A stretch of 64,000 nt of DNA from Myxococcota bacterium (lineage in GTDB: Bacteria; Myxococcota_A; SURF-8), in NCBI GenBank assembly GCA_963674735.2, contig CAXXQS010000002.1:800001-864000 (forward strand), given 5' to 3'. Below, in pieces: positions 23,455 to 42,089 of the stretch (position 1 is the first letter of the stretch; each line of letters starts with the position of its first letter). Under the pieces are notes generated by a model. The model was not told where the DNA came from, made no database searches, and saw only the letters and a list, made by a program, of their open reading frames with translations. Position numbers and translations under genes: made by a program.

Positions 23455-25209
23455 ATGCTCCGCCTGCTGGCCCCACTGATCCTGTTTTTTCTCTTCTTCA
23501 TCGCTCCGGCGTGGGCGATCGGCCCCACCGAATCCGACACCCTCTGCGTGCTTTCCGCCGATGCCGCCGGATTTTCCGTGGAGGCCTGCAAAACCATCTC
23601 ACGCGACCGGCCCAGACGACCGGGGCCGACCCGACGAAGCATGGATCTTTCCTTCCAGTTGCACCGGTCCGGCGATCCATCCGTCACGCAGGGTTGGCTT
23701 TCCGACCCCTTCACCTTGCGCGCCGCTTTCGTTGCGGCGGATGCCGCCACCCGGCATGTCCACACAACCCGAGCCGACGGTGCCGTTCTCATCCGCCTGC
23801 CCGGCCTCTACGATCCAAAGCGGTTTGTTCTTGAAATCGACGGACGCCCGGCAACGGCCGCCGCTTTTACGAAAACCGACCGCGTTCGCCCAGCCGCCGC
23901 CGCTCAGCCGGTCGAAACCCTCATCGACAACGGACCGGTGGACAACCGCCTCGACCTGGTGGTTCTCGGCGACGGCTACACGGCCGGCGAACAAGGCGCT
24001 TTTCGCCAAGACGCCCTGGCCTTGCTCGACTACTGGCTGGCGCAGGAGCCGTTTCAACGTTACGCCATCCACTACAACGTCCATCTGCTTTTTATCGAAT
24101 CCGCCGAATCGGGAGCCGATCACCCCTCGCAAGGCATACAACGCGACACCGCCTTCGATGCGTCCTTCGACTATGCCGATATCCCGCAGTTACTGGTTGT
24201 GGATGAAGCCAAGGTCTTGAGAGCGGCCTTGGCCGCCCCCGACGTCGATCAGGTGGTTGTGATCGTGAACGACGACATGTATGGCGGGTCGGGCGGATCG
24301 GTGGCGGTCGTTTCACGCCATCTGGAAGCCCCCGAAGTCATGACACACGAACTCGGTCACAGCCTGGCGAATCTGGCCGATGAATACGAAGATCCGCTGC
24401 CCGGCTATGAACCGGGCGATAGCGAGCCGAACGTCACCTTCGAAACGGAACGCGACGCGATTCCCTGGGTGGATTGGATCGAGCCCGCGATGCCGCTTCC
24501 ATCACCCGAAGAAGACGCTTACGCCGGGCAAGTGGGCCTGTTCGAAGGAGCGCGTTACCGCGAAAGCGGCATCTACCGACCCGAGCTCACCTGTCGCATG
24601 CGCGAACTCGGACGCGACTTCTGCACGATCTGCCGCGAAGCGCTGGTGGCGGCACACTATCGCCATCTCGCCCCTTCCGACGCCCTGGGCGGGGATGTCG
24701 TCGCCGATGTCGGGGAAACCCTCTTTTTCGACGCCGCCCCGGTGCAACCCGAATCGGAAACGGTGTCCGTCGTCTGGACGGTAGACGGGCTGGAACAGGA
24801 GGCGCGTGTCGAAATCCTGGAGAAAACCTTCGAAAAGGGCCTCCATACGGTTACCGCACAGGTAGTTGACAGCTCCGATTGGCTGCGTTTGCCTGCGGCT
24901 CGCGATACCGCCCACGCCGACATCACCTGGACCGTCCACGCGGGGATTGAATCGTCCGATGGCGATTCGGATGCGGAAACGGATGAAGAGTTGGAGCAAG
25001 AAAGGGACGCCGAGGCGTCAAACGAGGGGGGCGACACCGACTTGCCCGCCGAAGATGGAGATACGGAAATCAACGAAAAGGAGGGGAATAACGGCGGCGG
25101 CTGCCGATCTTTCCCGCTTCCTTCTTCCGGCTGGATTTTATTGATTTTCGCTGTCTGCGCCTATGGTCGCCGCAGGAAAAACCGACCGGCTACTCCACCC
25201 GATCGGTGA
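23455..25209 (+). CDS. Secreted M64 (IgA peptidase-like) metallopeptidase with MYXO-CTERM-like tail
   Basis: NGPVDNRLDLVVLGDGYT, YGGSGG, HELGHSLANLADEY, GLFEGA, YRP...CRMR...FCTIC; tail GGGC-hydrophobic-RRRK. Confidence 0.88.
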   Translation: MLRLLAPLILFFLFFIAPAWAIGPTESDTLCVLSADAAGFSVEACKTISRDRPRRPGPTRRSMDLSFQLHRSGDPSVTQGWLSDPFTLRAAFVAADAATRHVHTTRADGAVLIRLPGLYDPKRFVLEIDGRPATAAAFTKTDRVRPAAAAQPVETLIDNGPVDNRLDLVVLGDGYTAGEQGAFRQDALALLDYWLAQEPFQRYAIHYNVHLLFIESAESGADHPSQGIQRDTAFDASFDYADIPQLLVVDEAKVLRAALAAPDVDQVVVIVNDDMYGGSGGSVAVVSRHLEAPEVMTHELGHSLANLADEYEDPLPGYEPGDSEPNVTFETERDAIPWVDWIEPAMPLPSPEEDAYAGQVGLFEGARYRESGIYRPELTCRMRELGRDFCTICREALVAAHYRHLAPSDALGGDVVADVGETLFFDAAPVQPESETVSVVWTVDGLEQEARVEILEKTFEKGLHTVTAQVVDSSDWLRLPAARDTAHADITWTVHAGIESSDGDSDAETDEELEQERDAEASNEGGDTDLPAEDGDTEINEKEGNNGGGCRSFPLPSSGWILLIFAVCAYGRRRKNRPATPPDR

Positions 25210-25882
25210 TAAGCTGACAAATTCCGCCTTCCAGACAATCGAGCCACGCGGTGTCGTCGCAGGCCAACTCGGCGCAAGCGGCGTAATACAGGAATGTCTC
25301 ATCGGTGTAAAGAGCCGCATGAATGTTGCTGCACGCGGTTCGATTGGTCTCGGCCACGTCGGGATCGCAATCGCGCAAAAGATCGCCGACCTGGTCGCAC
25401 ACGCTGTAACGCGGTGGATCGACCGATTCGCTTTCCAGCGCTTTACGACGGCAGTAGACCTCCAGGTCGGGCGAGGTGTCGCCCAAGTCCCGGGCTTGCT
25501 CGAAATTGCTGCAACTCGTGTTGATGATACAGTTTTCCCAGCGATCCAGAATTTCCGGAATCACCTCGTAACTGCGGGCATGGCAGTCGCGGCGGCACTC
25601 TTCGATGCTGTCGAAAAGACCGCCGCAGGTATCGACCTTGTTGCACCAGGCGGAGCAGGCCACGCTGCTTTGGGGGTTGGCTTCGGCACGACGCGCATGG
25701 CAGTCCACGGGCGGCAACGTTTCTTCTTCGATATCGCTATCGCCATCCGGTGAAAGCGTATCATCATCACCGCCGCAGGCCGCCAGGCAGAACATCAAGC
25801 AAACCAGCAGACACAACCACACCCAAACGCGAGGGTCACCTGCTTTGCCGGTCATCCGTTCGCCGTTTTTCGTCGCCGCCAT
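25190..25882 (-). CDS. Cys-rich lipoprotein
   Basis: Lipobox LAAC, GGDDD...DGDSD linker, repeated CxxxC motifs; GGAGG RBS. Confidence 0.75.
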   Translation of the reverse strand: MAATKNGERMTGKAGDPRVWVWLCLLVCLMFCLAACGGDDDTLSPDGDSDIEEETLPPVDCHARRAEANPQSSVACSAWCNKVDTCGGLFDSIEECRRDCHARSYEVIPEILDRWENCIINTSCSNFEQARDLGDTSPDLEVYCRRKALESESVDPPRYSVCDQVGDLLRDCDPDVAETNRTACSNIHAALYTDETFLYYAACAELACDDTAWLDCLEGGICQLITDRVE

Positions 25883-25940
25883 CGCCACCTCCTGAATACG
25901 GGAAGCCGGGCTCCGGTCGACAGGCCGCAAGACACGCCGT

Positions 25941-27302
25941 TTATTCGGCGCTCTCGGGTTCGTCGTCCGTATCACTTTCGGGCGCGTTCGCCGGTTGGAT
26001 CGGCTTCGGGTCCACCTCTTTGATCGCCACCTTCTCGGCCAGCATTTCATTCAGACGATCCTGGCGCAAGACGTAGGTGAGGGTGTCCATTTTCTCGGGA
26101 TCCGCGTAATACTTCATGAGCTGGTCGAGGGGAAGCTGCATTTTCTCGGCCATATCGGTCATGTAGGCTTCGCGGTCTTCGTCGCTGACCGTAATGTCGA
26201 AGTCCTTGGCCAGGCGTTCCTGCAGCCACACCGATTTCAGGCTGTGCTCGGCCTCTTCCTGGGCGCGCTCGCGCATGGCGGCTTCATCCATGCCCATGCT
26301 CGCCGGATCGAGCCCGTATTGCGCCATCTGGTTGGCCTGCTCTTTCATCATTTCTTCGGTCTGCTTGGCCAAAACGGAAGGCGGCAGCGGCATCGGGTTG
26401 GCCGCGACGATCTTCTTCCACATATCGCGTTGGAACTGGCGTTTGACGCGTTCCACCTGCGCGTTTTCGAGATCCTTTTTCAGATCGGCCTTGAGTTCGT
26501 CGAGGTTCGCATACTCGCCCAGATCCTTGGCCAGCTCGTCGTCCAGCTCGGGCAACTCGCGTTCGAGGATTTCGTGCACGAAGCATTTGAACGTGATTTC
26601 CGCACCTTTGAGATGCTCAACGCGAAAATCCTCGGGGAAGGCGACGGAGAATTCCAGCGGTTCACCGATTTTCTGACCGATAATGTGCTCTTCAAAGCCC
26701 GGAATGAAGCGATCTTCACCCAGCTGGATTTCCTGTTTTTCGGCCTTGGCGTCGGGAAGCGGCTCACCCTGGATGAACCCTTCGTAATCCATGCGCACCC
26801 AGTCGTCTTTCTCGATCGTATCGCGGCCTTCGACGGTCTTCATGACGGCGGCCGACTGGCGACGACCTTCCAGGGCCTGTTCCATGGCTTCATCGCTGAC
26901 CACGACACGTTCGCGTTCGACCTCGAAACCGTCGAGCACCACGTCTTTGACGACGGGCTTGAGTTCCATGGTGAAGCTGAACACGTAATCGCCCTCGCCT
27001 TTGTAGTCGGGGCGGTTAACCTTCGGCAGCGCCAAAGGAGCCAGATCGTAACGGTTGGTGGCCTGACTGAAGCCCTCCTGGACCAGGTCGGCTTCGACGT
27101 CTTTGAGAGCCTGTTTGAAATACATCTTGCGGACCACCGACATGGGCACCTTGCCCTTGCGAAAGCCCTTGATGCTGGCGGTCTGGGCGACGTTCTTCAA
27201 AACCGCCTCCAGGCGCTCTTCCACTGCGGCTTGGGGAATCACGACCTTGATATCGCGTTCCACTTCGCTGACTTCGGTGACCTCGATTTTGTAATCCGTC
27301 AC
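25941..27302 (-). CDS. tig: Trigger factor
   Basis: GFRKGKVP ribosome-binding signature, FKBP domain (FIPGFEE, FPEDF), ELPELDDELAK; GTG start after GAGGA. Confidence 0.96.
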   Translation of the reverse strand: MTDYKIEVTEVSEVERDIKVVIPQAAVEERLEAVLKNVAQTASIKGFRKGKVPMSVVRKMYFKQALKDVEADLVQEGFSQATNRYDLAPLALPKVNRPDYKGEGDYVFSFTMELKPVVKDVVLDGFEVERERVVVSDEAMEQALEGRRQSAAVMKTVEGRDTIEKDDWVRMDYEGFIQGEPLPDAKAEKQEIQLGEDRFIPGFEEHIIGQKIGEPLEFSVAFPEDFRVEHLKGAEITFKCFVHEILERELPELDDELAKDLGEYANLDELKADLKKDLENAQVERVKRQFQRDMWKKIVAANPMPLPPSVLAKQTEEMMKEQANQMAQYGLDPASMGMDEAAMRERAQEEAEHSLKSVWLQERLAKDFDITVSDEDREAYMTDMAEKMQLPLDQLMKYYADPEKMDTLTYVLRQDRLNEMLAEKVAIKEVDPKPIQPANAPESDTDDEPESAE

Positions 27303-27335
27303 GATATTCCTCACTGCCTTAAGGGGGTCAAAAGA

Positions 27336-27420
27336 TGGTGCGAGAAGTGGGACTCGAACCCACACGGGTCGCCCCACTGGATCCTAAGTCCAGCGCGTCT
27401 GCCAATTCCGCCATTCTCGC
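27336..27420 (-). tRNA. tRNA-Leu (TAG)
   Basis: Reverse complement GCGAGAATGGCGGAATTGGCAGACGCGCTGGACTTAGGATCCAG...GGTTCGAGTCCC...CCA, long variable arm. Confidence 0.97.
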
Positions 27421-30700: not shown

Positions 30701-30826
30701 CAGGGGTTTATCCACCAGCGTCTCTTCGGGCGGCTGACAATCGCAATAGATTCGCGCGGCCTGTGCACCGAAAGTCCATAGCAGGAGCCATCCGATCAGC
30801 GCCAATGTCCCTACCCGACGCGCCAT
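27728..30826 (-). CDS. TonB-dependent receptor with extra N-terminal domain
   Basis: Plug motifs VVSASK, SPSAITVIT.EDI, LRTVPG, MLVLIDGRSVY, IDRMEVIRGPGSTLYGANAFSGVVNI; barrel GLRYD, NPNLKPE; GGAGG RBS. Confidence 0.93.
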   Translation of the reverse strand: MARRVGTLALIGWLLLWTFGAQAARIYCDCQPPEETLVDKPLTLEFTLRPSGTSIDYALVYYRNLLRSSWKTVFIKKRSGERWTATIPGRHVSNPGIELYAVAFDQRGKKRMIFRDEESPAMVRVVTSFTPPPAPPLAMEVDPEQGSDSLTPGGPEESVRLPEPRTLASESETGLDETPEAETESDSLNLADEFALFTFETEAKVVSASKVEQDISHSPSAITVITGEDIRNYGSSSIADVLRTVPGMDFLEISSADKNLTTRGFNREGANKMLVLIDGRSVYVDLFGITFWEALPVPVEDIDRMEVIRGPGSTLYGANAFSGVVNIYTRKPEDIKGLIYSFDGGTGGFTGSAVFGDVKDNLGYKVSASYRRLLSYDDMDELALESVKGNLFAEYSIAKDFSFSLTGGAEKDKVGSIFSLIGPVSVNTTQAYTKLNGQWKGLKAQFFYTYLAADLSFDVPIPGFVAADPMWYDSRRLGTEQWAEERDREIITLQIDQQDPPRVRSSGHTFDLDLTYSIELAEMDRITAGGNLRFVLLDSPDLVDSSSQRNSYSAFLQNELYPWDWFLFNAGLRYDLMDVDEENPDHPGREVDNIHSISPRGALVFIPHKDHTLRVSGGVSFRNPAFFESNMKVKLADMTVSAPLSKLTPPSILTALDPNATLPDLDTRAPLAFESNPNLKPEKMVSAEFGYNGRIARRVEVSADFFFNWVRDLILFEGDTDKLYWALNPFSAGAIDPEVLDPFNFNNDVDANNVGFEVEARFRITSWLRGFVNYSFQHIWVTNANQLKSDYVDRKEAFVDALPDSINFEAAGVSTPNRIFDDSGEYSKDAYLDALTENVSLEDITTVHKENPSHKANIGFNTHYKGFSANIFGHFVSETTRKNFLTRLSRARFLTFGYDPDRTGNWVRYEGMGPVAVYSKSADGTTTTYGIESIDPYFILNLNASYTLFDGRMEVGVALLDLLHLPSLWQDVGNNGFSLSDQKVHNGSVIYREASGIASPRYSQYPRQLLFGQSMGGETIPTRVSLFIRGRI

Positions 30827-31045
30827 GCGACCACCTCCCCAAAGCCAATCGTTTTCGACGGGATCGGCAACGATGATGAGTGATGACAAATTTCCATATC
30901 CATCAATTTCTGCACCAGTATAACATTTAGAGCACGAAAAGGCAAAGTCGCGAAAGTGTGAAAATGGGTGCCGGACACCACTTTTTGCCTTGCGTCGCCC
31001 CCGCACCTTCCTTATGCTGAAGCGATAAAAATGCGAGGTGGTGCG

Positions 31046-32219
31046 ATGTCCGAACATGGATATCTATTGGCCGACAACCCGCGCAACCGGGCTTTCGAAC
31101 GCGCGATTCAGGCTCAGATCGAGCCCGGCCAGGTGGTGTGCGATTTGGGCTGTGGAACGGGAATTCTGGGGTTTATGGCCCTGCGCGCCGGAGCCGGACG
31201 CGTGATCGGCATCGAACAGGATCGCGTGATCGACGAAGCCCGCCAGTTGGCCGCCGCAAACATGTGGAGCGAGCGCACGGTCTATTTGCAGGGCCGCTCG
31301 GATGAGCTCAGCCCCCCCGAACCCGCCGACTGGATCGTGGTGGAATGGCTCAGCAGTCTGGGAGCCGACGAATGGCCCCCCTGGATTCTGGCGGATGCGC
31401 TTCAGCGCTACCTCAAGCCGGGCGGGCGCATCATTCCGGCCGCCGTCCAACACTACCTGGTTCCGGTATGCGCCCCCGAAACATGGACGGCCGCCCTGGG
31501 ACACGCGAGCGGCACGCGCTATGGAGTCGACTGGCGACCCTTGCTCGACTCCGCCTCCAAGCGCTTGTACGCATTCGACATCCCCGCCGAGAGCGCCCTC
31601 GACACGCCGCGCTGTTGGCTGGATGTGTCGCTGAGCGACGCGGAACGGCTGCGCAGCCTCAATCCCTTCGAAGGCGGCCCGCTCGCGTTCACCGTTCAAC
31701 GCGACGGGGATTGCCATGGGCTGGCGGGTTGGTTCGCCGCCGACTTAGGGTCGGGCATCACGTTGACCAATGCGCCCGAAGCCGCCCCGACGCATTGGCG
31801 ACAGACGTTTCTGCCCCTGGCCGAAACCGCTGAACGTCAAAAAGGGCGACACCCTGACGGCCCGCGTGGCCAAACGCTGGGTGGGAAACAACAGCCATCA
31901 TAGCTGGCAGGTCGAGCAGCGGCGGAACGAGACAGTCATCGCCTGCGGCGGCTCCGGCGAGACATGGGCCGACGCCCTGACTCCCGCCGAAATGGCCCGT
32001 ATCACCGCCCGTTTCATTCCCGAAGCCGGTCCCGCCGACATCCGTCTGGCGGCTTTGCTCGCCCAGGTGGACGGTCGGCGCTCCGCCGAAGACGTGGCCG
32101 ACCGGACCGCGCAGACCCGTCCGGATCTGTTCCCCACCCCGGAAGACGCCCTGAACGAACTCATCCGGCAATGGCGCAAACGGCCGCTCAAGCCGCTCAA
32201 GAAAGGATCGTCGGAATGA
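31046..32219 (+). pseudogene. PRMT-like SAM methyltransferase with C-terminal PqqD/RRE-like domain; apparent +1 frameshift near 31824 (pseudogene or sequencing error)
   Basis: DLGCGTGIL, double-E loop EWLSSLGADE, LKPGG, HGLAGWF, THWRQT; removing one A from GAAACCG joins ...FLPLAE to PLNVKKGDTL... of ORF 31770-32219. Confidence 0.8.
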
Positions 32220-33298
32220 CCGACCGGCCTGCACCCGACTACGAGGCGCTCCTGGCCAAAGTGATCGACCGCTACGCTAGCGCCAAGATTCCCCTGGCCG
32301 CCCAACTCGAACTCACCAAACGTTGCTCGCTCAACTGTGTCCATTGCTACGTGGATCATGCCGCAGCCGGAACGGAACTGACAACGGAGGAATGGATCGC
32401 CGTCCTGGACGAGCTCGCGGCCTTCGGCGTTTTGCAGGTGGTCTTCACCGGGGGCGAACCCTTCCTGCGGTCCGACATCTGGACCCTGCTCGAAGCCGCC
32501 GCCGAGCGGCAGTTTTACATCCGTCTTCTAACCTCCGGGACACGCTTCAAACCCGGCGACATCGCACGGTTGCAGGATCTTCCGCTGGCCGAATTGCATC
32601 TGTCGCTTTACAGCCACATCCCCGAACGCCACGATGCCGTCACCACCGTTCCCGGCAGTTTCGAGAAAACGCGGCACAGCCTGATCGAGGCGCGCGCCGC
32701 CGGTCTATCGGTATGGGTGAAAGCCATCGTGATGCGCGGCAACCGCACCGACATTCCCGAGGTGGCGCGTCTGGCGCGTGAGCAGGGTTGCCACCTCACG
32801 CTGGATGCCAATCTCACACCCGCCGAGAATGACGCCCGCGATCCCCTGGCTTATCGTCTGACGGAAACGGAGATGGTGGACTTTTTCGCCGATCCGCAAA
32901 ACGCCCGGCTGTTCGTCGAGGCGGACACCCTGGCGGAAGCCTGCGCCGCTCTGGCCAATCCCGCCACGAGCGGCCAAATCTGCAACGTGGGACGCGCCAC
33001 CGCCGTCATCGACGCCTACGGCAACGTGCAACCCTGCGCCCTGTATCCGCCCCTCGATTCCATTCGCAACCGATCCTTCTCCGAAATCTGGCAAAACAAC
33101 CCCGACATCGAGCGCTTGCGCAGCCTGATCTATGAAGAACAGACACAGTGTCCGGGTTGTCCGCACGTGGCCGTCTGCTCGCCTTGTCCGGCCTTGGCGC
33201 AGATCGAGAACGGCGATGCGCGGAGCTGTTCGAGCGGCGCACGTCTGCAGGCCATCGCTTTCGAGAATCTGAAAGCGAAGCTGGAAAAGCCTGAATAA
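32216..33298 (+). CDS. Radical SAM/SPASM domain protein (PqqE-like)
   Basis: ELTKRCSLNCVHCY, FTGGEP, SPASM CNVG...GNVQPC...CPGC...CSPCP...C; ATGA overlap with the upstream stop. Confidence 0.92.
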   Translation: MTDRPAPDYEALLAKVIDRYASAKIPLAAQLELTKRCSLNCVHCYVDHAAAGTELTTEEWIAVLDELAAFGVLQVVFTGGEPFLRSDIWTLLEAAAERQFYIRLLTSGTRFKPGDIARLQDLPLAELHLSLYSHIPERHDAVTTVPGSFEKTRHSLIEARAAGLSVWVKAIVMRGNRTDIPEVARLAREQGCHLTLDANLTPAENDARDPLAYRLTETEMVDFFADPQNARLFVEADTLAEACAALANPATSGQICNVGRATAVIDAYGNVQPCALYPPLDSIRNRSFSEIWQNNPDIERLRSLIYEEQTQCPGCPHVAVCSPCPALAQIENGDARSCSSGARLQAIAFENLKAKLEKPE

Positions 33299-33311: not shown

Positions 33312-33341
33312 AAAAAACGCCCCCCGATTGGGAGGGCGTTT
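33312..33341. terminator. Bidirectional terminator
   Basis: AAAAAACGCCC.CC...GG.GGGCGTTT between convergent rSAM and atpE. Confidence 0.8.
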
Positions 33342-33361
33342 CGTATGATCGCCGTTCGCGC

Positions 33362-39056: not shown

Positions 39057-39359
39057 TTGAAAGATTCCCTTCCGGGCGTTTTCCGTGAATCTATAAGTGC
39101 GAAGTTCCGAATAGTATCTTTTCCGCACGGCTGTCGGACCAGCGCTACGGACCGATGGCGTGCGATAGCGGAAATCGACTTGCGTTTTTTCCTTTTCCCG
39201 AATCCCGCATCATGCTACATTCGGAAAGCCAACACGGGTTCAAAATCAGACTCGCCATTCAGACCGAATCCGGTTTCACGGGTATTAACGGTTCGTTGTA
39301 ATCAATTGCGCCTTCGGCCAAGCGGGGGGCATACCAAAATCAATCGAGGATCTGTCACA

Positions 39360-42089
39360 ATGGGTACATCGACATTTTACTGCAATCGACGACTCGGAGA
39401 AAAACCCAGCCGAATCATGGGTATCGGCTTTGCAACGCTGATTCTGCTACTGGCGACGCTGCTCCCCGCCTGCAGCAACGATTCACGGAGCCTGGAAGAC
39501 GGCGATCCGATCTGCGAGGCCGATTTCGGTTGGGACGGCGATCTGGACGACGAGCTGGCCGACTTGATCGAAACCCTGAATGAATCCTGCGACGATAGCG
39601 ACGGCGACCTGGACGACGAACTGGTGGAAATGTTGGAACAATTGGAAACAGATGGCCATAACGGGAGGTCGGGTATTGCGATCACATTCGACGATGCGTA
39701 CATCGAATCTTGGCACGCCTATCGCGCGTTGTTCGCGAAATATGGCGCACGGGCAAGTTTCATGCTTACGCGTCCCCATCTAATGACCGATCGACAGGTT
39801 CAACAGTTGCAGGAATTGCAGAGCGACGGTCATGAGATCGGCTGCCATACGCTGACGCATGTCCGACCCCGCGAATTCGTGGCCGAACACGGCATGCAGA
39901 CGTTCATCGATGAACAAATTCTTCCAGCGCTGGCCGCTATGCGAGAAAAAGGCCTCGAACCGAGAAGCTTTTCCTATCCCCAGGGAAACCGTTCCGACCA
40001 AACCGACCAGGTTCTGCTGAATTACTTCGATTTTCTTAGAACCTCCGGCTACTTGACACCGCAATACAAGGACAGGGTTTTCCATCGCTGGACACGCGAA
40101 CGGCTGACCTTCGCGGCCAACGTCGATGAAGGCAAATTCGCGTGGGAGGATCTGATGCTCGCCATGGACGAAGCCCAGCGTGAAGGGGTGGTACTCGTGG
40201 TCTACGCTCACGAAATCGCGGCTGAAAGCGAGCAGTTGCACATCAAGCCGGAAAATCTGGAAGCGCTGATGGTGGAAGCCCAGAAACGGGGATTGCATTT
40301 CTACACGCTGCCCGAATTGCAAGAGCAACCCGGGCCGGAAGTGATTTACTCCTGGATGGATGAGGGCTTTTTCGAGTATGCCGACAACATGTTGGACGAC
40401 ATCTACTTCACCGCCACGCGCTTCGAGTCGGCCAAGCTCGACTGGCCACTGACTTGGACGGAAGACCCCTATGGCGAAAAATACTGGCGCTTCATTTTCT
40501 ACAGCCTGCGCTTCACGCGCCATCTGCTCTACGCCTACCGCGTCACCGGCGACGAGGTCTACCGCGACAAACTCGTGGCGATTCTGCGCAGTTTCGTCGA
40601 CAAGGGAGAACAATCGCCCTACATCGACGACAAGCACACGGAGGCGTTTCTGGCCATGTCCCTGGTCAACTGCTACTGCAAGCTGTCGCGCGCAGACGCC
40701 CTGGACGACGACCTGAAGGAAAAACTGCAGGGCGTAATTTACCGGCGCGGTGAATTTCTCGAAAAAGAGGAGCATTTCGAGAAAAACAACAATCACGGCG
40801 TCACCGAAGCGGCGGCGTTGTTGCTGATTGCCGTCAACTTCACCGGTTTCGACAAGGCGGCCGAGTGGCGCAGCCTGGGCATCGAACGCCTGAACGTGGT
40901 CCTCGACAAAACGGTGGACGACGACGGCGTGCAGATCGAGCAGTCGCCCTTCTACCATTTCTACCAGTTCAACTTTTTCTGGGAAATTTTCCACTGGGAC
41001 CGGCAATTCGCGGTGGGCATCGGCGAGGAGTTCGAAAGCACCATCAACGGCATGCTGCGCTTCGCCTCCTACGTTTTGCTGCCCGACCGCAGCATCCCGC
41101 TGATCGGGTCGAGCAAGCCTTACGATCTGACCATCGAAAGCCCGCACATCTATTCCAAGGCCGCCGAGTACGATCCGGCCTGGCGCTACGTGTACACGCT
41201 GGGCGCGTCGGGAACGGTTCCCGCGCCCGCCAGCACCCTCTTCCCCGCAGGCGGCTGGGCCTTTCTGCGCTCATCTTTCGGCACGACCGACAGCTACACC
41301 GACCAAAGCCAGCTCATCATGGATGTCGGTCCTTTCCGCACCGGCCACAGCCACCTCGACGCCCTCAGTTTGCATTTTTACGCCCAGCACCGGGTGCTGC
41401 TGGCCGACTCGGGTCTGTACACCTACGAAGAGGGCGAAAAGCACGACTACTTCTTCGGCACGCGCGCGCACAACACCGTCACCGTCGACGGCGGCGACCA
41501 GGCCCAGGGCGATTGCACGCAAGGTCTGTTTGAAACGGGCGACGGCTGGGCCTACCAGTCGGGATCGCACGCGCTCTACGACGGGGTGACGCACAGCCGC
41601 GGCGCATTTCTCATCGGGCAGGATCTGGTGCTGGTGGTGGATGAACTGGTGGGTCTCGCCTCCCACAGCTACGAGCAGAACTGGCACCTCTCCCCCGAAG
41701 CCAAGCTGACCCTGGACGGTCTGTCGGCCTCCGTGACGGATGAAAACGACGCGCCGCTTCTGGCGATCCGGCAAGCGCTGTCCAGCGGCGTCACGCCAAA
41801 CAGCGTAAAGGGGCAGGCCTCTCCCTACGACGGCTGGGTCTCCCTCGAATACGAAGAGGACACCCCCGCCTGGCGCGTGGGCTACACCCAGGAAGGGCAG
41901 ACGGCCATCTACGCAACCCTGATCGCCGCCGGTTCCGCCGCAGCCGATCCCGCGCTTGCCATCCGGGCGGAAAAAGACGGGGAAAACTGGACCCTCGCCC
42001 TGACCGCAAACGGTCAAAGCTATTCAATCGAGGTCCACAGTCTCGCGGGAACCTCCGAAAGCGTCTCGGTGGAACAAAGCACGCGCTAG
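39360..42089 (+). CDS. Lipoprotein: NodB-type polysaccharide deacetylase fused to heparinase II/III-like domain
   Basis: Lipobox LLPAC; ITFDDA, GHEIGCHTLTH, FSYPQG; NNHG, DGVQIEQSPFYH, GHSHLDALS, DSGLYTY, TRAHNTVTVDG. Confidence 0.85.
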   Translation: MGTSTFYCNRRLGEKPSRIMGIGFATLILLLATLLPACSNDSRSLEDGDPICEADFGWDGDLDDELADLIETLNESCDDSDGDLDDELVEMLEQLETDGHNGRSGIAITFDDAYIESWHAYRALFAKYGARASFMLTRPHLMTDRQVQQLQELQSDGHEIGCHTLTHVRPREFVAEHGMQTFIDEQILPALAAMREKGLEPRSFSYPQGNRSDQTDQVLLNYFDFLRTSGYLTPQYKDRVFHRWTRERLTFAANVDEGKFAWEDLMLAMDEAQREGVVLVVYAHEIAAESEQLHIKPENLEALMVEAQKRGLHFYTLPELQEQPGPEVIYSWMDEGFFEYADNMLDDIYFTATRFESAKLDWPLTWTEDPYGEKYWRFIFYSLRFTRHLLYAYRVTGDEVYRDKLVAILRSFVDKGEQSPYIDDKHTEAFLAMSLVNCYCKLSRADALDDDLKEKLQGVIYRRGEFLEKEEHFEKNNNHGVTEAAALLLIAVNFTGFDKAAEWRSLGIERLNVVLDKTVDDDGVQIEQSPFYHFYQFNFFWEIFHWDRQFAVGIGEEFESTINGMLRFASYVLLPDRSIPLIGSSKPYDLTIESPHIYSKAAEYDPAWRYVYTLGASGTVPAPASTLFPAGGWAFLRSSFGTTDSYTDQSQLIMDVGPFRTGHSHLDALSLHFYAQHRVLLADSGLYTYEEGEKHDYFFGTRAHNTVTVDGGDQAQGDCTQGLFETGDGWAYQSGSHALYDGVTHSRGAFLIGQDLVLVVDELVGLASHSYEQNWHLSPEAKLTLDGLSASVTDENDAPLLAIRQALSSGVTPNSVKGQASPYDGWVSLEYEEDTPAWRVGYTQEGQTAIYATLIAAGSAAADPALAIRAEKDGENWTLALTANGQSYSIEVHSLAGTSESVSVEQSTR

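Follow-up and report, generated by a model that had tools for sequence, protein, structure and literature searches.

Methylation of the guanidino group of arginine by enzymes of the protein arginine methyltransferase (PRMT) type is a known protein mark of eukaryotes. The eukaryotic type I PRMTs (PRMT6, PRMT1, PRMT3, PRMT8, PRMT2, and CARM1) combine a Rossmann domain with a beta-barrel and carry motif I, a double-E loop with eight residues between the two glutamates, a THW loop, and an N-terminal H..ML.D..R helix, whereby the double-E and THW residues are known from structural work to hold the guanidinium group. Uncharacterised methyltransferases of the same fold occur in lasso-peptide clusters, where they sit beside the genes for the lasso cyclase and protease. 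A further group of related systems comprises SynChlorMet (NCBIfam TIGR04248-04251, with the HprK-related ScmC, the PqqD-related ScmD, and the radical S-adenosylmethionine (rSAM)/SPASM proteins ScmE and ScmF) and GeoRSP, both of which we take, from the descriptions of their models, to be predicted and uncharacterised peptide-maturation cassettes. Here, we analyzed a gene pair at positions 31,046-33,298 of a window, i.e., a stretch of 64,000 nucleotides (nt), from a Myxococcota genome (contig CAXXQS010000002.1, positions 800,001-864,000). The pair codes for a PRMT-fold methyltransferase with a C-terminal tail and for an rSAM/SPASM enzyme. We consider it probable that these two proteins are the tailoring enzyme and the core maturase of a system of the type that makes peptides that are synthesized on ribosomes and modified after translation (RiPPs), whose genes are scattered over the chromosome and whose methyltransferase would methylate the single arginine of the precursor core.

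The methyltransferase has the fold, motif I, double-E loop, THW, and N-terminal helix in common with the eukaryotic type I PRMTs (Foldseek identity 24-29%), but differs from the solved PRMTs in that it is bacterial, has a C-terminal helical tail of ~90 residues, and is translationally coupled to an rSAM/SPASM gene. It is presumed to act on a small peptide of ribosomal origin, and not on RGG-type proteins as the eukaryotic enzymes do. The proposed system has the same parts list as SynChlorMet and GeoRSP. In contrast to these, it has an identifiable precursor family, a cassette that in this bacterial order is split over the chromosome, and a PRMT-fold enzyme as an additional component. The features of the pair are:

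31046..32219, plus strand: gene for the PRMT-fold methyltransferase with C-terminal tail (390 amino acids in one frame; from the alignment with tailed homologues)
31142..31168, plus strand: motif I DLGCGTGIL (SAM binding), residues 33-41; D33, G35, G37, and G39 vary little or not at all across the homologue alignments
31343..31372, plus strand: double-E loop E100-WLSSLGAD-E109, eight residues between the glutamates
31790..31798, plus strand: THW loop, T249 H250 W251
31824..31826, plus strand: AAA run with a surplus A, by which the gene is broken into two frames in the assembly of the window (from run contigs and homologues)
32031..32180, plus strand: predicted three-helix tail domain, half of a RiPP recognition element (RRE) or winged-helix-like (AlphaFold model, VIA-align)
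32216..33298, plus strand: rSAM/SPASM gene, 360 amino acids, whose start overlaps the methyltransferase stop
32324..32347, plus strand: CxxxCxxC rSAM motif, C37 SLN C41 VH C44
32981..33260, plus strand: SPASM region, seven cysteines in residues 256-347 (Pfam SPASM stretch 256-316; further cysteines from the translation)

The Pfam model PRMT_C (PF22528) matched the first reading frame of the methyltransferase alone with 32.8 bits (cut-off 27) and the intact orthologue from G036, a genome of the same family, with 52.3 bits; PrmA and Methyltransf_25 matched as well. When a profile of 34 family members was compared with solved chains, the best 60 were all PRMTs, led by PRMT6 (E-value 2e-58) and followed by PRMT1, 3, 8, 2, and CARM1 (2e-58 to 1e-50), whereby the coverage was at most positions 4-288 of 379. 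No sequence match was obtained for the tail among the solved chains, the profile match being confined to positions 4-288. In the PRMT6 alignment, the E..E of PRMT6 aligns with the double-E loop, and the THW lies in the matching stretch. An AlphaFold model, which was made for the G036 orthologue and not for the window's protein, has a mean predicted local distance difference test (pLDDT) score of 87.9 and matches PRMT6, CARM1, PRMT3, PRMT1, and Hmt1 with Foldseek E-values of 1e-29 to 1e-27 and TMt values of 0.72-0.85. The motifs thus exceed what chance would produce, since PRMT_C scores above its cut-off, the profile matches PRMTs only, and the model superposes on PRMTs. According to these profile and model comparisons, the enzyme is of a eukaryote-like type I PRMT fold with intact catalytic loops. 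A eukaryote-like PRMT is what an earlier note on this DNA, made from the letters alone, had proposed, and the elements that it had named (motif I, the double-E loop, THWRQT, the N-terminal H..LL.D..R, a C-terminal segment, and the ATGA coupling) were all found in place; profile and structure comparison likewise bore out the eukaryotic likeness, with PRMT6, CARM1, and PRMT1 among the matches.

In the assembly the pair spans two open reading frames (ORFs) of the plus strand in different frames (30968/31046-31903 and 31770-32219), followed by 32216-33298. The first frame, which has GAGGTGG 6-12 nt upstream of its ATG, holds the N-terminal H4..LL..D10..R13, VCDLGCGTGIL at residues 31-41, the double-E loop, and T249-H250-W251-RQTFLPL. 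The second frame holds ...KKGDTLTARV... and the tail ...IRLAALLAQVDGRRSAEDVADRTAQTRPDLFPTPEDALNELIRQW..., also written LLAQVDGRRSAEDVAD...DLFPTPEDAL. Because the 390-residue product of a read-through with a step of one base can be aligned over its entire length with 27 homologues, which have 358-393 residues, the two ORFs represent one gene. In addition, Logan contigs from all three public runs omit one letter at 31824 and are otherwise identical over the stretch; two of these runs are from one sample and the third is from another sample of the same study, the depths are 5-11, the runs may stem from the source sample of the window itself, and the comparison is one of contigs. Homologues read LAEP at the break, as does the one-frame reading ...LPLAEPLNVKK... 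(also ...FLPLAEPLNVKKGD...). Since the three run contigs agree with the homologues in omitting the letter, the methyltransferase gene is probably intact and the frameshift at 31824 an assembly error. A pseudogene and a programmed frameshift were both considered and ruled out, the extra base being missing from all three run contigs. The stop codon TGA of the methyltransferase gene (32217-32219) overlaps the ATG of the rSAM/SPASM gene (32216-32218) as ATGA.

The rSAM/SPASM protein matches Pfam Radical_SAM (PF04055) with 81.4 bits and SPASM (PF13186) with 36 bits, and its closest solved relatives are PqqE and SkfB. The matches to PqqE, SkfB, StsB, AlbA, and PapB suggest a thioether-type crosslinking activity. 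Its best NCBIfam scores are those to NirJ2, TIGR04053, AhbD, and NirJ (120-126 bits), whereby none of the cut-offs of NirJ2, TIGR04053, AhbD, MftC, PqqE, ScmE, or the GeoRSP rSAM family is reached (best 126.5 versus 500 bits). Protein P0083, a 490-amino-acid rSAM/SPASM relative with 32% identity, carries Transglut_core3, the domain of the lasso leader protease type, and this fusion ties the rSAM/SPASM family to peptide processing. In two genomes of one genus, G042 and G030 (L107:3781-5349 and L108:1179-2780), an rSAM orthologue with 40% identity directly follows a gene for a protein of 520-530 amino acids with a signal-peptide-like start, a long acidic low-complexity region, and no Pfam match; a weak homologue of this protein is encoded in the window's genome at C1:2655144-2656154.

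The best matches of the methyltransferase among 5.8 billion clustered proteins are only 38-39% identical and fall into two length classes, one of ~290-320 residues and a tailed one of ~372-393 residues. When 1.84 billion representatives were searched, the yield was six proteins at 416-630 bits, with the next one at 283 bits, and by this gap in the scores the window's enzyme is a member of a small separate clade. Among the best 149 representatives, 24 have the tail together with E..E and HW, 27 have the tail with E..E and W only, 39 are tailed and have lost all motif residues, and 28 are tail-less with intact motifs. As 24 of the 149 carry both tail and motifs, tailed enzymes with intact motifs exist beyond the window's clade. 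Within the clade, E-x8-E, THW, and tail are kept together in the orthologues of G036, G272, and G012, and TCW replaces THW in two representatives.

A neighbourhood scan of named genomes revealed tailed homologues in lasso-peptide clusters (L004, L007, L009, L013, L018, and L019 among the 80 loci listed), with PqqD, Transglut_core3, Asn_synthase, HprK-like, and NTP_transf_5 genes as neighbours. These homologues come from Acidobacteria, Nitrospira, 'Deltaproteobacteria', Acidimicrobiia, and Pseudomonadota. They share the fold with the window's enzyme as well as a homologous tail of the pattern (L/V)xxxDGxR(T/S)xxE(I/V)...HPxLFPS, and like the window's clade they have an HprK-like gene and PqqD as associates. 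They differ in that they have lost the second glutamate and the THW, E-x8-E being replaced by D...(D/E) and THW by I/L-x-R-R, in their position beside lasso cyclase and protease genes, and in their scores, from which those of the window's clade are well apart. No lasso cluster was detected in the window's genome by a search with Transglut_core3, which gave no match over the cut-off (24.9 versus 26 bits); Asn_synthase was not searched in the genome.

In the clade itself, where gene calls in the relatives are simple ORF picks, the rSAM/SPASM gene adjoins the methyltransferase gene in three of four genomes. The coupling to an rSAM/SPASM gene that the earlier note had pointed out is therefore borne out by the CxxxCxxC motif and the seven-cysteine SPASM region and by the recurrence of the pairing in two genomes besides the window's. 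In G036 the methyltransferase is 43% and the rSAM/SPASM enzyme 47% identical to the respective window protein, and the genes overlap by 11 nt. G272, from another family, has in a row the genes for a B12-rSAM enzyme, an HprK-like protein, the methyltransferase, the rSAM/SPASM enzyme, PqqD, and an ABC transporter, with a candidate precursor before the B12-rSAM gene. In G012, which belongs to the same order as the window's genome, a small ORF and an HprK-like gene are directly followed by the tailed, motif-intact methyltransferase, whereas the rSAM orthologue (36% identical) is located 2.46 Mb away. A link of homologues to peptide maturases, which the earlier note had made a test of its proposal, is thus seen both in the same-tail relatives of lasso clusters and in one rSAM-containing cluster of RiPP type, that of G272. 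The methyltransferase query of the phylum genomes did not find the enzyme in G024, G030, G042, or G054. Judged from its presence in the window's genome (G000), G036, G012, and G272, the PRMT-fold protein would be an accessory tailoring enzyme.

Tail-less PRMT-like genes are more widespread, with matches in 85 of 401 phylum genomes at E<=1e-15 and two to four matches in several genomes; it is common for such genes of the phylum to have E-x8-E and THW intact (loci L115-L140). In an uncultured delta proteobacterium (L022:9450-11449), ~1.6 kb separate a tail-less PRMT-like gene from two convergent genes, one for an HprK-like P-loop protein and one for an rSAM/SPASM enzyme. The latter is 31% identical to that of the window, and this is the only such tail-less case among the 80 loci listed. 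The association of PRMT-like and rSAM genes may accordingly predate the tail.

The HprK-like proteins of G012 and G272 led to one homologue in the window's genome (C2:1693825-1694679), 8 kb from the only gene of this genome that matches Pfam PqqD (PF05402). A small ORF directly upstream of the kinase-like gene reads MSDRTKTTEQEVRSSKKPYKKPEVESAKIYERLSLACGKATQPPCRTPLKSA from its methionine. PqqD, candidate precursor, and kinase-like gene are located at G000:C2:1685555-1694679, which is 861 kb from the window's rSAM gene on the same chromosome piece. The earlier note had suggested that the peptide is encoded elsewhere, and a candidate precursor gene ~860 kb away fits this suggestion. The small ORFs of G000, G012, and G272 align with each other, with P22, I29, E31, A36, C37, K39, and C45 being invariant; in G012 the ORF precedes the kinase-like gene and in G272 the B12-rSAM gene. 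The same peptide, followed by the kinase-like gene, is also present in G036, G054, G024, and G030, and the order PqqD, giant FG-GAP/Ig-like gene, peptide, kinase-like gene is kept in G000, G036, G024, and G054. The giant gene of the window's genome (G000:C2:1685973-1693475; L223:5974-13476) encodes ~2500 amino acids with FG-GAP and bacterial Ig-like domains.

A profile built from seven of the sequences finds the peptide in 38 of 401 phylum genomes at E<=1e-3. In 21 of these 38, a homologue of the window's rSAM/SPASM enzyme is encoded within 6 kb of the peptide on the same contig (this co-location count and the core-arginine counts given below, 4/4 and 9/25, were made by eye from tables). The typical order is precursor, kinase-like gene, and rSAM/SPASM gene, sometimes with PqqD upstream. 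When the rSAM protein alone was used as query, the kinase-like gene was directly upstream in 12 of 14 loci (L090-L103), and rSAM homologues at 30-37% identity lie beside a precursor and/or an RRE protein in many phylum genomes. Based on these neighbourhoods, we infer that the window's rSAM/SPASM enzyme is the maturase of the candidate precursor family. Within the order to which the window's genome belongs, the rSAM gene is separated from the rest of the cassette, the distances being 861 kb (G000), 623 kb (G036), 1.07 Mb (G024), and 2.46 Mb (G012).

The candidate precursors have ~50 residues and share the leader (R/K)(R/K)PY.KP.(V/F)..S..(Y/F)E(R/T).(A/S)L.C, also written KPxVxSxKIYERLxLxC. The short core contains at least two cysteines and mostly ends at or near a serine (e.g., ...QS, ...NS, ...SS, ...KSA). 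The peptide does not match any NCBIfam model; twelve unnamed small proteins are on record. All four cores from genomes with the methyltransferase have exactly one arginine after the first conserved cysteine, namely CRTP in the window's genome and CRPP, STRSG, and SGRIS in the others. As the double-E and THW residues are intact and each of the four associated cores has a single arginine, it is suggestive that this arginine is the most likely methylation target of the peptide.

The kinase-like, PqqD, and rSAM proteins were also compared with the SynChlorMet and GeoRSP models. The kinase-like protein matches ScmC with an E-value of 3e-7 (30.1 bits versus a cut-off of 125), the PqqD protein matches ScmD with 8e-8 (32.4 bits versus a cut-off of 100) and the GeoRSP PqqD model with 9e-8, with the lasso PqqD model also matching below its cut-off, and the rSAM enzyme matches ScmE with 1.5e-27 (96.5 bits versus a cut-off of 400) and the GeoRSP rSAM model with 8e-27. 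As every score is far below the family cut-off, the system of the window is not a member of SynChlorMet.

The earlier note had described the tail of the methyltransferase as RRE-like. An AlphaFold model of the window's tail alone (31950-32216) predicts helices at 28-37, 46-56, and 64-77 with pLDDT 93-97 and no strands, and the full-length G036 model has a short helix followed by helices at 331-342, 349-359, and 367-378 (pLDDT 90-97), likewise strand-free. In a VIA-align comparison with 48,161 representative chains, the top match was PqqD of Xanthomonas (3g2b; Z 5.9, root-mean-square deviation 2.4 A over 52 residues), with the tail superposing on residues 37-88, the helical half of PqqD. Generic winged-helix domains came next at Z 5.0-5.3, which is within tie range, and the RRE region of the LanB protein MibB (5ehk, residues 207-284) ranked 17th. 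The three-stranded sheet that precedes the three helices in PqqD-like RREs is not predicted in the window's tail. A Foldseek search of the tail model against the PDB gave no match at E<=0.001; its top row was the Mycobacterium tuberculosis methyltransferase Rv2067c (E 0.82, 45 columns, 33% identity), and PqqD 5sxy ranked 32nd (E 3.7). The Pfam model PF05402 did not match the window's tail at E<=10 and matched two of nine tails weakly (E 0.15-0.16, 12.8-12.9 bits versus a cut-off of 23.4, profile positions 20-66), and an hhalign comparison of the tails with four PqqD proteins gave a probability of 4.7% with the alignment in the expected register. In the ESM Atlas, the named clusters nearest to the tail carry PF21782 (WHD_PKMT, PKMT C-terminal winged helix) at a score of 0.88, which is below the trust level and serves as a lead only. 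Rv2067c and PF21782 are independent of each other, and each is a weak lead towards the winged-helix domains that some bacterial protein methyltransferases have at their C-terminus. The RRE-like description thus fits the tail by half: PqqD is the top structural match but is tied with winged helices, and neither a sheet nor a PF05402 match was found for the window's tail. The tail may be a winged-helix-type three-helix module, possibly a cut-down RRE, with a putative role in leader binding. It need not be the leader binder, because the system includes a complete PqqD gene of its own.

From the observed fold, motifs, gene coupling, repeated pairing, neighbourhoods, and precursor conservation, we infer the following chemistry and binding steps. 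The phylum-wide system would consist of a discrete PqqD chaperone, a precursor of ~50 residues, a kinase-like P-loop protein that resembles HprK, and an rSAM/SPASM enzyme. In the window's genome, the rSAM/SPASM gene would have moved 861 kb from the cassette and have become translationally coupled to the PRMT-fold methyltransferase gene. PqqD would hold the leader, perhaps aided by the helical tail of the methyltransferase, and the rSAM/SPASM enzyme would crosslink or otherwise modify the cysteine-containing core. The kinase-like protein may phosphorylate the C-terminal serine, by analogy to lasso-peptide kinases. The methyltransferase would methylate the guanidino group of the single core arginine, which in the window's genome is that of CRTP. 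More tentatively, and with some reserve as to all parts holding together, this could be the first PRMT-type enzyme for a ribosomal peptide natural product, recruited by means of a cut-down RRE-like tail and methylating the arginine of a cysteine-crosslinked, maybe serine-phosphorylated peptide of an undescribed RiPP class with scattered genes.

Several observations weigh against a peptide-directed arginine methyltransferase. Orthologues of the rSAM enzyme occur without the methyltransferase in G024, G030, and G042, and thus the methyltransferase appears to be dispensable for the system. Neither a precursor nor a PqqD or kinase-like gene adjoins the pair in the window or in G036, so that the link to a peptide rests on the relatives. 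A metagenome scan with the clade alignment showed no tail match and no rSAM/SPASM neighbour among the 80 loci listed. Of 25 precursor cores from loci that lack the methyltransferase, 9 contain an arginine as well, so that arginine does not track the enzyme tightly; the genomes are also kin. By profile and model comparison the tail is not demonstrably an RRE, and the best NCBIfam matches of the rSAM enzyme include the tetrapyrrole enzymes NirJ2 and AhbD, all of them far below the cut-offs. It could therefore be that the methyltransferase tailors the same peptide at a nucleophile other than arginine, such as lysine, the amino terminus, a carboxylate, or a residue that carries a phosphate or a crosslink. 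This would agree with the many tailed relatives, the majority, that lack E-x8-E and THW and still are found in peptide clusters, with the TCW variants in the clade, and with the occurrence of arginine beyond the precursors of methyltransferase-bearing genomes. However, the window's enzyme and its orthologues from G036, G272, and G012 keep both glutamates and the THW, and each of the four associated cores has exactly one arginine, which makes a non-arginine target unlikely.

It might also be that the enzyme is a general PRMT that acts on cellular proteins, e.g., ribosomal or other abundant ones. In that case, common regulation and not a common substrate would account for the coupling to the rSAM gene, and the tail would be a winged-helix module of a generic kind, similar to the C-terminal domain of some bacterial protein methyltransferases. 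The abundance of tail-less, motif-intact PRMT-like genes in the phylum (matches in 85/401 genomes) is in line with this, as are the PF21782 and Rv2067c leads for the tail. We nevertheless regard a general PRMT as quite unlikely, since the homology of the tail with those of the lasso-cluster enzymes extends over its length, the methyltransferase gene is part of a RiPP-type cluster in G272 and in G012 directly follows the precursor and kinase-like genes, and the overlap with the rSAM gene, be it ATGA or 11 nt, is found in two genera. Highly improbable, finally, is a pair that is not directed at a peptide at all, with an rSAM enzyme of NirJ or AhbD type acting on a tetrapyrrole or another cofactor and a methyltransferase acting on a small molecule. 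Although the top NCBIfam scores of 120-126 bits and the name 'AdoMet-dependent heme synthase', which one source gives to a 36%-identical rSAM relative, would suggest such a role, the scores fall far short of the cut-offs of 395-515 bits, many genomes have an rSAM homologue directly after the precursor and the kinase-like gene and PqqD in the vicinity, and the closest solved relatives, PqqE and SkfB, modify peptides. Methylation of a core arginine in a RiPP-type system with dispersed genes is thus the reading that we prefer.

Literature searches found no paper on an HPr-kinase/rSAM/PqqD peptide system, and a full-text search found none on SynChlorMet. Nor did searches of the literature outside subscription journals and bioRxiv supplements bring up a paper in which a PRMT-type enzyme takes part in RiPP biosynthesis. 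In the passages of PMC12710340 and PMC13352647 on methyltransferases and methylation, arginine methylation of lasso peptides is not listed. The system is not wholly new, as the PRMT fold family is known and HprK-like/PqqD/rSAM cassettes have already been predicted. The candidate new RiPP system of the earlier note would be new in its added PRMT-fold enzyme, but not in its parts list, which is that of the predicted SynChlorMet-type cassettes. What appears to be new, as far as sequence comparison can tell, is that a RiPP-type system has a PRMT-type tailoring enzyme in which the arginine machinery is retained, and that its genes are dispersed over the chromosome. If this is true, a bacterial PRMT-type enzyme with intact catalytic loops and a role in peptide maturation would extend the tailoring reactions of ribosomal peptide natural products by a new one and would provide a simple bacterial model for PRMT substrate recognition. 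The uncharacterised peptide family (38/401 phylum genomes), with its recognisable leader and its kinase-like and rSAM/SPASM partners, makes the predicted and unstudied HprK-like/PqqD/rSAM cassettes directly testable. Moreover, such systems can be split over a chromosome, and cluster-based genome mining would miss them.

In the window, the pair is flanked by housekeeping genes, namely those for trigger factor, a divergent TonB-dependent receptor, and the convergent genes for ATP synthase a and c and gene 1. The earlier note had seen no adjacent precursor ORF, and indeed no precursor ORF beside the pair is supported, including the small ORFs at 30750-31100. None of the genes for a lasso cyclase (Asn_synthase-like), a B2 protease (Transglut_core3), or a B1 PqqD protein adjoins the pair. 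One further feature lies downstream of it:

33314..33342, no strand assigned: GC-rich hairpin with T-runs, terminator-like, between the rSAM gene and the convergent atpE

On the minus strand, a 286-amino-acid ORF at 25190-26050, for which Pfam gave no match at 1e-5, shares ~110 nt with the trigger-factor gene (25941-27377, minus strand) in the start region of the latter. This overlap could be due to a mis-set start or to another single-base assembly error like that at 31824. The plus-strand gene at 39057-42089 encodes a protein of 1010 amino acids with a polysaccharide deacetylase domain and the N- and C-terminal domains of heparinase II/III.

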